Under the pieces are notes generated by a model. The model made no database searches. It was not told the DNA's origin and saw nothing but the letters and a program-made list of their open reading frames with translations. Positions 29,779 to 34,042 of a DNA stretch of 64,000 nt are shown one piece after another (position 1 is the first letter of the stretch; each line of letters starts with the position of its first letter). The stretch lies in assembly GCA_964275345.1 (NCBI GenBank), contig CAXYBK010000002.1, forward strand, positions 6,684 through 70,683, given 5' to 3'. The stretch comes from an uncultured SAR86 cluster bacterium. GTDB lineage: Bacteria > Pseudomonadota > Gammaproteobacteria > Magnimaribacterales > D2472. Both the position numbers and the translations under genes were made by a program.

Positions 29779-31011
29779 ATGATTAATAAAAAATTTGATA
29801 TTATTATTCTCGGCGCAGGTGCAGCTGGCTTAATGGCGGCATTGACTGCAGCGCAAAGAAATAAAAGTGTTTTAATCTTAGAAAAATCTAATAAAGCTGG
29901 AAAGAAGATTTTAATGTCTGGTGGCGGCCGTTCAAATTTTACAAATCTGTATGTTGAAGCAGAAAATTTTCTTTCAAATAATCCACATTTTTGTAAATCA
30001 GCTCTTACAAGGTACACACCTGATGATTTTATAAATCTAGTTAAGAAGCACAGAATAGATTTTGAAGAAAAGAAACATCATCAATTATTTTGTATTAATT
30101 CATCAAAAGATATTCTTAATATGCTTTTAGAAGAGTGTACTGATTTAGGCGTAGAGATTCATATGGATGTAGAAACTGAAAAAGTAGAAAAGCTGCATGA
30201 AGAGGGCGATAAGACTTTATACGAAGTGACCTCAATTTTTAATAGCAAAACATCCTCAGATAAAACATTGCTTAATTGCAAATCTCTTATTGTCGCAACT
30301 GGGGCACTATCAATACCAACTCTAGGAGGTAGCGGTTTTGGATATGAATTGGCTAAGGACTTTGAATTACCATTAGTGCCAAGGCGAGCAAGCTTAGTTC
30401 CGTTTATGTTTTCTGATGAGATTAAAGACCTATGCGAAAGACTAACAGGTCTATCTGCACCAGTAGATATTATGAGCAATAATATTCATTTTGTAGAATC
30501 AATGTTATTTACTCACAGAGGATTAAGTGGGCCTGCAATTCTCCAAATTTCAAATTATTGGAACCCTGGAGATACTATTACGATTAACCTATTGCCAGAA
30601 ATTGATGCTGCTATGATGCTAGTAAATAAAAAAGAAGAGCAGCCTAAAACTTCAATTAAAAAGCATTTAAGTGACTTATTGCCAAAGGCTCTAGTGCTCG
30701 AGTTAGAAGAAATGTCCTGGCCTGACTGTAAAGATCAAATGCTTGCCGAGATTAGCAATGAGAGGATTCAAAATATTGGTAATTTTCTAAATGCATGGAT
30801 TTTAAAGCCAGCAACGACAGAGGGATATCGAACAGCTGAGGTAACACTTGGTGGAGTTGATACAGATGTAATTAATTCAAAAACAATGGAAACTAAAGAT
30901 CACTCTGGATTATTTTTTATAGGTGAGGTTCTGGATGTAACAGGTCATTTAGGAGGCTATAACTTTCAATGGGCTTGGGCCTCAGGTTATAGTGCAGGGC
31001 AAGTGGCATAA
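29779..31011 (+). CDS. BaiN/HI0933 family flavoprotein
   Basis: GAGAAG, GKKILMSGGGRSNFTN, LFTHRGLSGP, AEVTLGGV, GGYNFQWAW. Confidence 0.93.
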   Translation: MINKKFDIIILGAGAAGLMAALTAAQRNKSVLILEKSNKAGKKILMSGGGRSNFTNLYVEAENFLSNNPHFCKSALTRYTPDDFINLVKKHRIDFEEKKHHQLFCINSSKDILNMLLEECTDLGVEIHMDVETEKVEKLHEEGDKTLYEVTSIFNSKTSSDKTLLNCKSLIVATGALSIPTLGGSGFGYELAKDFELPLVPRRASLVPFMFSDEIKDLCERLTGLSAPVDIMSNNIHFVESMLFTHRGLSGPAILQISNYWNPGDTITINLLPEIDAAMMLVNKKEEQPKTSIKKHLSDLLPKALVLELEEMSWPDCKDQMLAEISNERIQNIGNFLNAWILKPATTEGYRTAEVTLGGVDTDVINSKTMETKDHSGLFFIGEVLDVTGHLGGYNFQWAWASGYSAGQVA

Positions 31012-31056
31012 AAGTTAGTTTTTTTAATTATTTCTAATAATAAAAAATAATATTAC

Positions 31057-31085
31057 TTGAAAAAAATTACTATAAGGCTCACAAT
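31057..31085 (+). promoter_or_regulatory. Sigma70-type promoter for the RAPP leader ORF
   Basis: TTGAAA-17 nt-CACAAT; the ORF-track TTG start coincides with the -35 box. Confidence 0.5.
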
Positions 31086-31092
31086 TCTTTCT

Positions 31093-31371
31093 GTGAAATT
31101 TTGGACTAGCAGATATCTTCTTCTATTAACTGGATTACTTTTTGTATTTTCAGTTTCTTTAGACCCTTTTAATCATGGGTTTTCTGAACATCATCATGAA
31201 CTTGCAGAAGTAGAGTGCCAATTTTGTGAAAATGAAGTATTTGATACCAATCAATCTAAGTCTAAGTTAGCAAAAGTTTCGCATTTAAAAGTAATCAAAA
31301 TTGAGATAAACCAATTATTTATCTCATACCTCCCAAAATATTCTCATTCAAGAGCTCCGCCAAAAAATTAA
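31093..31371 (+). CDS. DUF2946/CruR-like leader peptide: hydrophobic N-terminus, His cluster, CxxC, C-terminal RAPP
   Basis: MKFWTSRYLLLLTGLLFVFSVSLDPFNHGFSEHHHELAEVECQFC...YSHSRAPPKN*, directly upstream of a TonB receptor; GTG 31093 preferred as start. Confidence 0.8.
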   Translation: MKFWTSRYLLLLTGLLFVFSVSLDPFNHGFSEHHHELAEVECQFCENEVFDTNQSKSKLAKVSHLKVIKIEINQLFISYLPKYSHSRAPPKN

Positions 31372-31407
31372 ATACTGAATTTTTTTTTAATTTTTTTTGG
31401 AGTTTTT
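31350..31407 (+). promoter_or_regulatory. Putative anti-Shine-Dalgarno hairpin linking the RAPP codons to the receptor RBS
   Basis: CTCC 31355-31358 pairs with GGAG 31399-31402; AAAAAATTAAA 31362-31372 pairs with TTTAATTTTTT 31386-31396. Confidence 0.6.
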
Positions 31408-31410
31408 TTT

Positions 31411-33543
31411 ATGAAACATTTATTTACAGCGCTTTTAACATTTAGCGCATTTACAAATTTTTTACATGCCGAGAGCATGGAAGAGGTTGTAGTAACATCC
31501 TCTTTTCTTGAATCAAGTAATATCAATAACCCTCTATACGTAATAGATGGTGATGATATCAATGACGGAGCAACTACTAGCTTAGGTGAAGCAGTTGATT
31601 CTTATTTAGGAGTCTCCATAGCAGACTATGGTTCTGCGGTTGGACAACCAATTATTAGAGGCATGTCTGGACCAAGGGTTAAAATCCTTAAAAATGGTAT
31701 GGTCAACCGAGATGTATCTGGTCTTGGTGTAGATCACTTGAATGATCTTGATCTAAATGACGTTAAACAAATTGAGATTGTTAAAGGCCCATCTTCATTA
31801 CTTTATGCAAATGGTTCAATCGGTGGAATTATCAATGTTGTTGATGATTGTATTGCAGAAATGGATTTTGCTGGATCAGAGTTTTCTGCAGGCTACGAAA
31901 AGCAATCTGTTAATGATGGCACTGCTCAAAACTTTAATTTTAAAGATAATCTAGGCGGCTTTAATATAAATTTTGGCTATTCAAAAATTGAATTAGGTAA
32001 TTTTGATGTTCCAGATGAAGCTATCCTTCACGAAGAAGAAGAGCATGAGGGTGAAGAAGAGCATGAAGAAGAAAATTTAGGATTTGTTAATAACTCTGAT
32101 TATCAAACAGAAGCAACAAAATTCGGCATTTCAAAAGCTGGAGATTGGGGTTACTTAGGATTCTCCGTTGATAATCTTGAAAGTGTTTACGGTATTCCAT
32201 TTCATGGAGAAGAACATGAAGAAGAAGAGCATGAAGAAGAGCATGAAGAAGAAAGAATTTTTTCAACCACAGATTCTGAAAGCTTTACTATAAAAGGCTC
32301 ATTTAACATGAATGGGGATTTAGTGAATAAAGTTGATTTCACTTTTCGTGATTCAGATTACATCTTAACTGAGGCTCATGCCGAAGAAGAGCATGATGAA
32401 GAAGAGCATGAAGAAGAAGAGCATGAAGAACATGAACCTACAAGCTTCATGAGCGCGTCTACTGAATACGGTGCAATTTTTGATCTATCTAACGACAATA
32501 TGACTCAAAAAGTCGTATTTAATGTTCTTGATGAAGATTCATCAATTATCGGCGAAGAAGCTTTTATGAATCCTGCTACAAGTGAAGAATTCACACTCGG
32601 ATATTTCATGAGTAAAGACATAGGAATGTATAACGTCGACTTTGGTTTCAGAATGGATCAAATTGAAAGGTCTGGAAGCGTAACTGATGAAGATCATGGA
32701 GATATCGACTATTACAATATAGATGATACGACTAATAGTTTTGCTGTAGCTTTAGGAAGAAGCTTAAGTGATAACTTAGATATAAATCTTGGTTTTGCTA
32801 GTGTTGAAAGATTACCTTCAGTTATTGAGCTCTTTATGAATGGACCTCATTTAGCTACCGGAAGACTTGAAGTTGGAAATCCTAATCTAAAAAGTGAAAC
32901 ATCAAATAATTTTGATGTTACTTTTGATTATGACAATGGAGACTTTTTTGCTTATGCAAGTTTTTATATAAACGAAGTCGATAACTACATTACTTTAATG
33001 GATGAAGACGAGGATCATGATGAAGACCACGGAGATGAAGACCATGGAGATGATCACGGAGAGTCAGATGATCACGGAAACTTAATCCACTCATTTTATG
33101 TTCAAGAAAATGCTGAATTTATTGGTTATGAATTAGAATTTGGAAGAACTGTTAATCTTGCATCTGGAGATTTAACTTACTCATTTGGAAGAGATCAAGT
33201 GAATGCGGAGTTTGCTGACGGACACAATGTGCCAAGAATTAATCCAGCAAGGAATGTATATTCTTTATCTTATGAACAAAATGATACTGTTTTTAAAATT
33301 AACCTGAAAAGTGTCGAAAGACAGAATGATTTTGGTGAAGGTGAGACTGCTACAGATTCTTATCGTATGCTCGATACTCGAGTAACAAAAACATTTAGTG
33401 TTAATGATAAAAGCAATATGAAAGTTACTTTATTTGCAAATAATTTGCTTGATGATGTAGCTAGAAATCATTCATCTTTTGTCAAGGGTCCAGTTCCATT
33501 ACCGGGAAGAAATGTTGGTGTTAAATTTAATCTAACTTTTTAG
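31411..33543 (+). CDS. ZnuD-like His-rich TonB-dependent receptor (probably zinc or other transition metal)
   Basis: EEVVVT, PIIRGMSGPRV, DVS..G.DH, IEIVKGPSSLLY, YGIPFH, ELFMNGPHLAT, ARNHSSFVK...PLPGRN, C-terminal Phe, four His/acidic loops. Confidence 0.88.
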   Translation: MKHLFTALLTFSAFTNFLHAESMEEVVVTSSFLESSNINNPLYVIDGDDINDGATTSLGEAVDSYLGVSIADYGSAVGQPIIRGMSGPRVKILKNGMVNRDVSGLGVDHLNDLDLNDVKQIEIVKGPSSLLYANGSIGGIINVVDDCIAEMDFAGSEFSAGYEKQSVNDGTAQNFNFKDNLGGFNINFGYSKIELGNFDVPDEAILHEEEEHEGEEEHEEENLGFVNNSDYQTEATKFGISKAGDWGYLGFSVDNLESVYGIPFHGEEHEEEEHEEEHEEERIFSTTDSESFTIKGSFNMNGDLVNKVDFTFRDSDYILTEAHAEEEHDEEEHEEEEHEEHEPTSFMSASTEYGAIFDLSNDNMTQKVVFNVLDEDSSIIGEEAFMNPATSEEFTLGYFMSKDIGMYNVDFGFRMDQIERSGSVTDEDHGDIDYYNIDDTTNSFAVALGRSLSDNLDINLGFASVERLPSVIELFMNGPHLATGRLEVGNPNLKSETSNNFDVTFDYDNGDFFAYASFYINEVDNYITLMDEDEDHDEDHGDEDHGDDHGESDDHGNLIHSFYVQENAEFIGYELEFGRTVNLASGDLTYSFGRDQVNAEFADGHNVPRINPARNVYSLSYEQNDTVFKINLKSVERQNDFGEGETATDSYRMLDTRVTKTFSVNDKSNMKVTLFANNLLDDVARNHSSFVKGPVPLPGRNVGVKFNLTF
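32029..33078 (+). repeat. Four in-frame low-complexity His/Glu/Asp tracts in the receptor
   Basis: GAAGAAGAGCAT-type units at 32029-32073, 32203-32253, 32377-32436; GATGAAGACCAC-type units at 33001-33078. Confidence 0.9.
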
Positions 33544-33622: not shown

Positions 33623-34042
33623 ATGGCACAATTCAATCAAATGTCAGTTAAATCACAATTAAGAACAGATAAGTATGCAGCTTCTTTGTCTTTCATATGC
33701 GCGCTTCATTGTTTACTTGCGCCATCATTCTTTATCTTAACTTCAGGTTTTTTTGCACTTTCAATAGATAATGAATTTATTCATAATTTTATTTTGTTTC
33801 TAGCCATCCCTATTAGCTCATATGCATTAATTGCTGGTTATAGAAATCATAAAACTCTTAACTTTTTATTTATAGGCTTTGCAGGCTTGTTCATGTTAAT
33901 CTCTGCGATTATCTTCAATGGAATTCTTTTTGAAGAATTAGGCGAAAAAGCATTAACCTTTTTAGGGTCAGTACTCGTTATTTATTCTCACTATAAGAAT
34001 TATCAAACATGTAAGAATATAGATTGCTCTTGCCATGAATAA
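33623..34042 (+). CDS. MerC-domain inner membrane protein
   Basis: DK....LS.ICALHC, EFIH, GYRNH, E..LT.LG.......H..N, terminal C...CSCH. Confidence 0.85.
   Translation: MAQFNQMSVKSQLRTDKYAASLSFICALHCLLAPSFFILTSGFFALSIDNEFIHNFILFLAIPISSYALIAGYRNHKTLNFLFIGFAGLFMLISAIIFNGILFEELGEKALTFLGSVLVIYSHYKNYQTCKNIDCSCHE

Follow-up and report, generated by a model that had tools for sequence, protein, structure and literature searches.

A conserved predicted hairpin pairs the codons of a RAPP motif with the Shine-Dalgarno sequence of a TonB-dependent receptor gene in a SAR86 bacterium and its relatives

The window analyzed here, a 64,000-nucleotide (nt) stretch of contig CAXYBK010000002.1 (positions 6,684 to 70,683; assembly GCA_964275345.1) from an uncultured SAR86 cluster bacterium, carries a short upstream open reading frame (uORF) directly ahead of a gene for a TonB-dependent receptor. 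All features described below lie on the forward strand. The uORF (31093..31371) encodes 92 amino acids (aa) when read from a GTG at 31093, or 104 aa from a TTG at 31057, and its product ends in ...SHSRAPPKN, followed by the TAA stop codon at 31369-31371. The codons of the RAPP arrest motif, AGA GCT CCG CCA (31351..31362), are in frame with the uORF. The receptor gene (31411..33543; 710 aa; Pfam Plug and TonB_dep_Rec_b-barrel domains) begins with the ATG at 31411, 39 nt after the uORF stop codon, and its Shine-Dalgarno (SD) sequence, GGAG, is found at 31399-31402, 8 nt before the ATG. The uORF is the first gene before the transporter gene, which is the arrangement of CruR-type operons. The first-pass annotation of this DNA had proposed that the RAPP codons are themselves the anti-SD of the receptor gene, a CTCC within them (31355-31358) being complementary to GGAG; its coordinates for RAPP, CTCC and GGAG were all correct when checked against the sequence.

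Folding of the region placed both elements in one hairpin. In the RNAfold structure of 31340-31420, the stem around CTCC:GGAG extended to AAGAGCUCCG:UGGAGUUUUU, as had been anticipated, and continued into an inner stem of 11 base pairs (bp), in which AAAAAATTAAA (31362-31372) pairs without mismatch to its reverse complement TTTAATTTTTT (31386-31396), the A-rich/T-rich pairing also noted earlier. The 5′ arm (31350..31372; 31350-31359 pairs with 31398-31407, and 31362-31372 with 31386-31396) takes in the last two sense codons of the uORF and its TAA, the loop is 13 nt long (31373..31385), and the 3′ arm (31386..31407) holds the receptor GGAG and part of the T-run spacer. The minimum free energy (MFE) was −17.8 kcal/mol, compared to −7.88 ± 2.23 kcal/mol for shuffled sequences (z = −4.45; 0 of 200 shuffles as stable), and the identical structure was obtained in a 151-nt context (z = −5.92). 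The predicted cost of opening the SD was 10.6 kcal/mol. When 31342-31372 was forced to be single-stranded, the remainder folded at only −2.3 kcal/mol and the SD was free. A T31356A-type change (GCT to GCA) lowered the predicted SD-opening cost from 10.6 to 5.3–5.9 kcal/mol, that is, it only halved it; most synonymous codings of RAPP are also anti-SD-like. The earlier caution that the homopolymer lengths may contain sequencing errors proved immaterial to the fold: RNA-library contigs from four studies had 1–2 T fewer at 31380, 31391, 31398 and 31403 (loop, 3′ arm and SD-ATG spacer), and T-run variants gave an MFE of −17.7 to −18.5 kcal/mol with a probability of 1.00 that the SD is paired. An Rfam 15 scan of 30900-31700 returned two chance-level matches only (E = 0.49 and 0.71), to unrelated lncRNA models. 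We conclude that the SD-sequestering hairpin at this locus is real and, as described next, conserved.

The orthologous loci were examined in 61 related small genomes (0.7–1.8 Mb), 53 of which contained the receptor; 50 of the 53 receptor loci were included (all except those of G018, G049 and G056). The uORF-receptor arrangement was present in 49 of the 50 loci. The uORF carried RAPP in 46 of them, 36–57 nt before the receptor start, with one to four codons between RAPP and the stop codon (two codons in 41 of the 46), and QAPP replaced RAPP in three loci, all from one genus (SQAPPKI or AQAPPKI). At one locus (L015, G015:C1), the receptor was found at 56% identity with no RAPP uORF upstream. The SD was predicted to be paired (P > 0.5) in all of the 44 distinct sequences; at the same threshold its pairing partner lay in the RAPP codons in 35 and in the zone that a stalled ribosome would cover in 39. 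Excess stability over shuffled sequences was widespread, with z < −2 in 33 and z < −3 in 23 of 43 sequences (median −3.29).

Covariation, one of the checks suggested in the first-pass annotation, came out in favor of pairing. Native 5′ and 3′ arms together averaged −13.2 kcal/mol, compared to −9.15 kcal/mol when arms were swapped between orthologues, a control that preserves the A-rich-then-T-rich layout, and 0 of 20000 permutations were as good as the native combination. RNAalifold found no consensus structure in 43 sequences aligned with plain MAFFT, which by itself argues against a shared fold; because MAFFT failed to hold the arms in register, covariance models were used. In a covariance-model alignment of 19 sequences, 90.3% of the cells were paired, compared to 41–65% with slid partners, and double changes occurred at eight pairs versus 3.6 expected (0 of 500 shuffles reached eight), although an alignment fitted to the structure on which it was built leans towards that structure. 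The inner A/U stem varied by lineage yet remained complementary, including in versions that bear G/C pairs. A second covariance-model alignment (A6) was not used for pair counts, as it contained reverse-strand matches of the near-palindromic hairpin and forced CCT-CC into the GCT-CC register.

These two registers of the anti-SD, GCT-CC at the junction of the Ala and first Pro (Pro1) codons and CCT-CC at the junction of the Pro1 and second Pro (Pro2) codons, tracked the sequence flanking the SD. GGAGG accompanied CCT-CC in 21 of 26 sequences; for GCT-CC, GGAG had T, A or C as its next base in 21 of 28. The Fisher p was 5e-5 when counted by sequence and 0.015 when counted by uORF cluster, values that overstate independence because the uORF clusters and genera are related, a reservation that counts against the strength of the association. 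Codon choice pointed the same way. Compared to usage-weighted synonymous codings, native codons made the SD costlier to open, by a mean of 1.2 kcal/mol, and they beat the synonymous median in 57 of 77 cases.

The peptide encoded by the uORF also appears to be under constraint. In the window it has a hydrophobic N-terminal segment (31111-31161), a signal that was judged by eye, a His-rich stretch (31174-31200) and a CxxC motif (codons TGC CAA TTT TGT, 31216..31227; peptide context ECQFCEN), so that it combines a CxxC, an N-terminal hydrophobic segment and a C-terminal RAPP that precedes the stop by a few codons, as in CruR-type uORFs. By analogy with CruR (PMC9426467), the CxxC is the presumed metal-sensing motif of the nascent chain. 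The uORFs of the relatives share the hydrophobic N-terminus, the His-rich stretch, C-x-x-C and SRAPP; the first Cys and RAPP were invariant in 45 of 45 aligned uORFs, at an overall column identity of 31%. Since RAPP was kept despite being spelled by many different codons across these uORFs, selection on the peptide is indicated. The second Cys was lost in L005, L011, L016, L024, L025 and L029 (CQYNEN, CEYFEN, CDYFEN, CEYAEN, CEYTEN and CQFHNN), all of which retain the first Cys and nearby His residues. In the 371,172 residues of six-frame ORFs of at least 80 aa in the 0.98-Mb assembly, RAPP occurred once and was the sole R[AG]PP, which fits the proteome-wide avoidance of RAPP reported previously (PMC12992588). 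Membership of the uORF in DUF2946 (PF11162) was considered and rejected, since the profile had no match to the uORF of the window at E ≤ 1, to the six-frame translation of its own genome at E ≤ 10, or to any of the 45 orthologous uORFs at E ≤ 1. None of the best 120 of 325 database relatives of the uORF had a Pfam domain or a name. A second hairpin, a perfect 9 bp of the GAGATAAAC...GTTTATCTC type, lies inside the uORF at 31302-31326, about 25 nt before RAPP; it is present in some close relatives (L010, L039) and absent from more distant ones.

A wider scan, with one genome per species, used the pattern AGA-GCN-CCN-CCN, two codons, TAA, 25–55 nt, GGAG, 4–10 nt, ATGAA, which requires no complementarity and is biased to A+T-rich genomes. 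It returned at least 72 loci. Among the matches listed, to which all figures in this paragraph refer, inspection by eye accepted 40 as real RAPP uORFs, of which 35 were new, and set aside 32 as spurious; an automatic split was discarded as too strict, having missed the DCVCC family and ORFs that run to the edge of the locus. The SD was paired with the RAPP codons in 34 of the 40 real uORFs compared to 10 of the 32 spurious matches, and the median z was −2.57 and −0.26, respectively. Titles of the matches included Porticoccaceae, Polynucleobacter, Kapaibacterium, Melioribacteraceae, Hydrogenobacter/Thermocrinis, Oligoflexia and Bdellovibrionales. In 21 representatives, the downstream gene had a Plug domain in 12 cases, PF13715 (CarboxypepD_reg-like), which we take to be the usual N-terminal domain of Bacteroidota-type TonB receptors, in one, and a weak SecDF match in one. 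RAPP uORFs of the same layout were also seen before genes other than TonB receptor genes (L106, L059, L118 and L067/L070/L115). The targets include a weakly SecDF-like protein in a metagenome-assembled genome (MAG) of Bdellovibrionales; in Hydrogenobacter and Thermocrinis the gene product is unassigned, and in Marinomonas it has a CBS domain.

The position of the hairpin was then compared with that of an arrested ribosome. In toeprints of CruR, the P and A sites were occupied by codons three and four of RAPP, with Pro1 as the P-site codon (PMC12992588). By analogy, the P site of a ribosome arrested here is expected to contain CCG (31357-31359) and its A site CCA (31360-31362). In 35 of 44 sequences the SD paired with bases −2..+1 or +1..+4, counted from the first base of Pro1; in 40 of 44 its partner fell no further than 15 nt to either side of the expected P-site base (−15..+15). 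The footprint of a ribosome extends roughly from −15 to +16, and the 5′ arm in the window ends at +15 from the P-site base. The P-site codon and the receptor start codon are 51–69 nt apart, which leaves room for an initiating 30S subunit. Prediction thus finds both elements of control of the SecM, MifM, VemP and CutF type at this locus, a stem-loop that sequesters the SD and a stalled ribosome that would occupy one of its arms.

From these results a switch may be proposed. The uORF product, with its His and Cys residues, would be exported and ends with RAPP, two codons and the stop. On free mRNA the hairpin would shut the SD, and the receptor gene would therefore not be initiated. A ribosome that arrests with its P site on Pro1 and its A site on Pro2 would hold the whole 5′ arm (31350-31372) in its mRNA channel, so that the SD, which lies 42 nt beyond the P-site codon, would become single-stranded and the receptor be translated. 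Once the arrest was released, termination would occur three codons later, the hairpin would re-form and receptor synthesis would stop. Release would most likely come from binding of metal, copper or zinc, to the His residues and CxxC of the nascent peptide, in line with the proposal for CruR. The comparison with relatives agrees with the suggestion of the first-pass annotation that a stalled ribosome frees the receptor ribosome-binding site by the secM/mifM logic, and we consider it probable that the hairpin is the output stage of a translational switch driven by RAPP arrest. Support for this comes from the hairpin itself, which is more stable than shuffled sequence and is conserved with compensatory change, from the geometry, and from RAPP being unique in the assembly. 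From these and from the known systems we infer the arrest itself, its release by metal and the identity of that metal, and a control that would be translational rather than, or as well as, Rho-dependent.

Several observations weigh against this interpretation. That RAPP arrests the ribosome is assumed for this bacterium from work on other species. Under the codon usage of the genome (34% G+C; Ala codons GCT 46% and GCA 39%, Pro codons CCT 45% and CCA 45%), about 70% of the synonymous codings of Ala-Pro-Pro contain CTCC, and for this reason the CTCC:GGAG match alone is not remarkable. Genome-wide, the SD was paired with P > 0.9 in 18% of 130 candidate SD-bearing starts, among which the locus ranks 7th by MFE, in a background that is crude as it includes some internal ATGs. 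With a base rate this high, the case rests on the whole hairpin and on the comparison with relatives. The relatives are not uniform. Complementarity to the RAPP codons, which the first-pass annotation expected orthologues to keep, persisted in the 35 sequences given above and not in the other nine, which pair the SD elsewhere; in L031, L032 and L034 the anti-SD has shifted to CTCT or CACT in the two codons after RAPP, so the statement that the RAPP codons are the anti-SD is true for most orthologues, not for all. Ten of 43 sequences (L002, L019, L024-L026, L036-L038, L044 and L045), mostly from two genera, lacked excess stability. Finally, the stop codon comes only two codons past RAPP, so that every terminating ribosome would also melt the hairpin.

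This last point leads to plain translational coupling, in which any ribosome that reaches the uORF stop codon would open the hairpin and receptor synthesis would follow uORF translation without regulated arrest, RAPP at most prolonging the open time. The stop codon lies inside the 5′ arm, so a terminating ribosome would cover this arm too, and in a published case an arrest-defective uORF still disrupts such a stem transiently (PMC10987492). Coupling is further favored by the three QAPP orthologues (L043:630-700, L046:137-206 and L048:114-189), which retain a CCTCC:GGAGG hairpin (z = −3.7 to −4.9) and thereby indicate that the hairpin can persist where the canonical Arg is gone; in this genus, either QAPP still arrests or the hairpin acts by plain coupling. 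Against coupling stand the invariance of RAPP in the 45 aligned uORFs despite varied codons and its standing as the sole R[AG]PP of the genome, as well as the invariant first Cys and the widely retained His-rich motif, which simple coupling would not require. We regard coupling without arrest as an unlikely account of the locus.

An attenuation of transcription would read the same elements differently: the hairpin and the eight U residues after it would form an intrinsic terminator, and/or Rho would act on the C-rich 3′ part of the uORF, with the SD pairing secondary and a stalled ribosome preventing termination, as it does for Rho in Bordetella cruR. The stem does have four G-C pairs at its base and is followed by TTTTTTTT. 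A stretch with more C than G covers about the last 130 nt of the uORF (31260..31390; C 18–23% and G 5–10% in 78-nt windows), a possible Rho loading region resembling the rut region of cruR, which works through Rho (PMC9426467), and a rho gene is present in the genome; both facts speak for Rho and against a purely translational switch. Weakly in favor, several RNA-library contigs end within 31388-31405, in low-complexity runs where assemblies break. Against a terminator, at least six T in the 8 nt after GGAG were found in only 7 of 44 orthologues, the window (U8) included, the SD is located in the 3′ arm in nearly all orthologues, a scan for intrinsic terminators found no site in 30800-31700, and one RNA contig crosses the hairpin into the receptor gene. 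The spacer between the genes is 39 nt, compared to 162 nt for cruR-bfrG (PMC9973294). With the U-tract so rarely kept, a conserved terminator is unlikely as the explanation, and we think it improbable that attenuation accounts for the hairpin. Given the rho gene and the C-rich stretch, the contrast with Rho-dependent control drawn in the first-pass annotation is not established. A combination in which translational repression is followed by Rho-dependent polarity is plausible.

RNA libraries bear on the same question. Six metatranscriptome runs matched about half of the sampled words, and four were compared with the locus as assembled contigs. A 1126-nt contig bridged 31021-32123, from the uORF into the receptor gene, which is compatible with a single transcript. 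In two runs the uORF was covered more deeply than the receptor, although contig depth and contig ends cannot rank genes or mark RNA ends. One error-free RNA contig spans exactly 31093-31392, starting at the candidate GTG.

That the pairing is a functionless by-product of C-rich Ala-Pro-Pro codons, A-rich Lys/Asn codons and a T-rich spacer, which would fold anyway, has on its side the frequency of CTCC among synonymous codings, the low G+C of the genome and, among the scan matches listed, the pairing of 10 of 32 spurious matches and of four of the six A+T-rich ones (P > 0.5, a further point against a specific function), but only one of those six had z < −2, the spurious median z was far from that of the real uORFs, swapped-arm chimeras folded 4 kcal/mol worse despite the same A-then-T layout with none of the 20000 permutations matching the native arms, the inner stem shows compensatory G/C changes and the codon register co-varies with the SD flank, and we consider this very improbable.

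The arrest-driven translational switch, preferred for the SAR86 locus, can be extended to the loci of the wider scan, more tentatively. RAPP may constitute a self-contained switch, in which GCU-CC or CCU-CC spells an anti-SD, so that stall site and SD mask share a dozen bases, 50–70 nt ahead of a gene led by an SD. A+T-rich bacteria of several phyla would gate TonB-dependent receptors and other genes in this way; among the matches listed, these would be Pseudomonadota, Kapaibacterium/Melioribacteraceae, Aquificota, Oligoflexia and Bdellovibrionales. Rho would be used instead in lineages of high G+C, Bordetella for example, whose GCC/CCG codons cannot mask an SD. We hold this generalization to be possible rather than probable. 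If it is true, the compact switch would supply the output mechanism still missing for the numerous RAPP uORFs of the 2025 catalogue.

The substrate of the receptor was approached through its sequence. Its best NCBIfam match was ZnuD, a zinc receptor, at 225 bits, far below the 950-bit cut-off for that family, and it contains four inserts rich in His, Glu and Asp (32029-32073, 32209-32253, 32383-32436 and 33001-33057; for example HEEEEHEGEEEHEEE). Together, these two features suggest that the metal may be zinc rather than copper. Downstream, a gene for a MerC-family membrane protein (33623..34042; Pfam MerC, E = 2.2e-24) is, from its position, probably the third gene of the unit, and its product may provide the inner-membrane step for this uptake route.

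The locus and about 80 distinct relatives offer a concrete and testable output mechanism that would need no extra factor, with a coding/structural overlap in which one set of 12 bases both encodes the arrest motif and masks the SD. The uORF family, overlooked by current Pfam models, occurs in abundant small-genome marine bacteria; such a switch would let them control trace-metal uptake post-transcriptionally, with no need for a dedicated regulator protein.

Among known systems, the closest in architecture is CruR-BfrG/CrtA of Bordetella pertussis (PMC9426467, PMC12914433), which shares a small uORF with an N-terminal export signal, a CxxC and, near the stop codon, a C-terminal RAPP, a position directly upstream of a TonB-dependent metal receptor, stalling as the ON state of an uptake gene, and, within the 3′ portion of the uORF, a C>G bubble. 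It differs in several respects. CruR is a DUF2946 protein, whereas the SAR86 uORF has no match to this profile, and the longer cruR-bfrG spacer was given above. Rho-dependent termination is reported for CruR, and the terms 'Shine-Dalgarno' and 'hairpin' have no occurrences in the available text of that paper (PMC9426467), in contrast to the SD-sequestering hairpin here. The receptor here is ZnuD-like and not a demonstrated member of the CrtA cluster, and the third gene is MerC-like, compared to PepSY_TM in Bordetella.

CutF-cutO of Rhodobacter capsulatus (PMC9973294; bioRxiv 10.1101/2025.02.05.636593) is likewise a metal-sensing exported uORF, in which stalling at C-terminal prolines opens a stem-loop that otherwise covers the SD of the following gene. 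CutF, a DUF2946 protein, differs in using PPP rather than RAPP and in carrying its anti-SD, CTTC, in the intergenic stem-loop and not in the arrest codons. The logic is also reversed: copper induces stalling of CutF and turns a detoxifying oxidase ON, whereas here metal is expected to release stalling and turn an uptake receptor OFF. SecM-secA, MifM-yidC2, VemP-secDF2 and uDF_RQH-secDF2 (PMC7897499, PMC10987492) similarly have an exported uORF product that carries an arrest peptide close to its C-terminus, and the stalled ribosome disrupts a stem-loop sequestering the downstream SD. However, these sense the Sec/YidC machinery by pulling force and control localization factors, compared to a metal receptor as the target here, and in the SAR86 locus the codons of the arrest motif themselves spell the anti-SD.

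ApdA, ApdP and the catalogued RAPP/RGPP uORFs (PMC7897499, PMC12992588) share a C-terminal RAPP in a small secretory protein; avoidance of RAPP elsewhere in the proteome has been reported, and such uORFs ahead of TonB receptor genes and metal genes have already been catalogued across bacteria, CruR being the one studied case (PMC12992588). For ApdA and ApdP, structure prediction gave no SD-sequestering hairpin according to the authors (PMC7897499), unlike the locus described here. The main text of the 2025 survey, as far as available, has no occurrences of stem-loop, hairpin, secondary structure or SD terms, and its authors count the way in which arrest acts on the downstream gene among the open questions (PMC12992588). 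Full-text searches, which did not reach subscription journals or bioRxiv supplements, turned up no published description of arrest codons acting as an anti-SD. Taken together, the uORF family is CruR-like in its architecture and would be SecM/CutF-like in its translational output, with the added twist that the arrest codons are the anti-SD.

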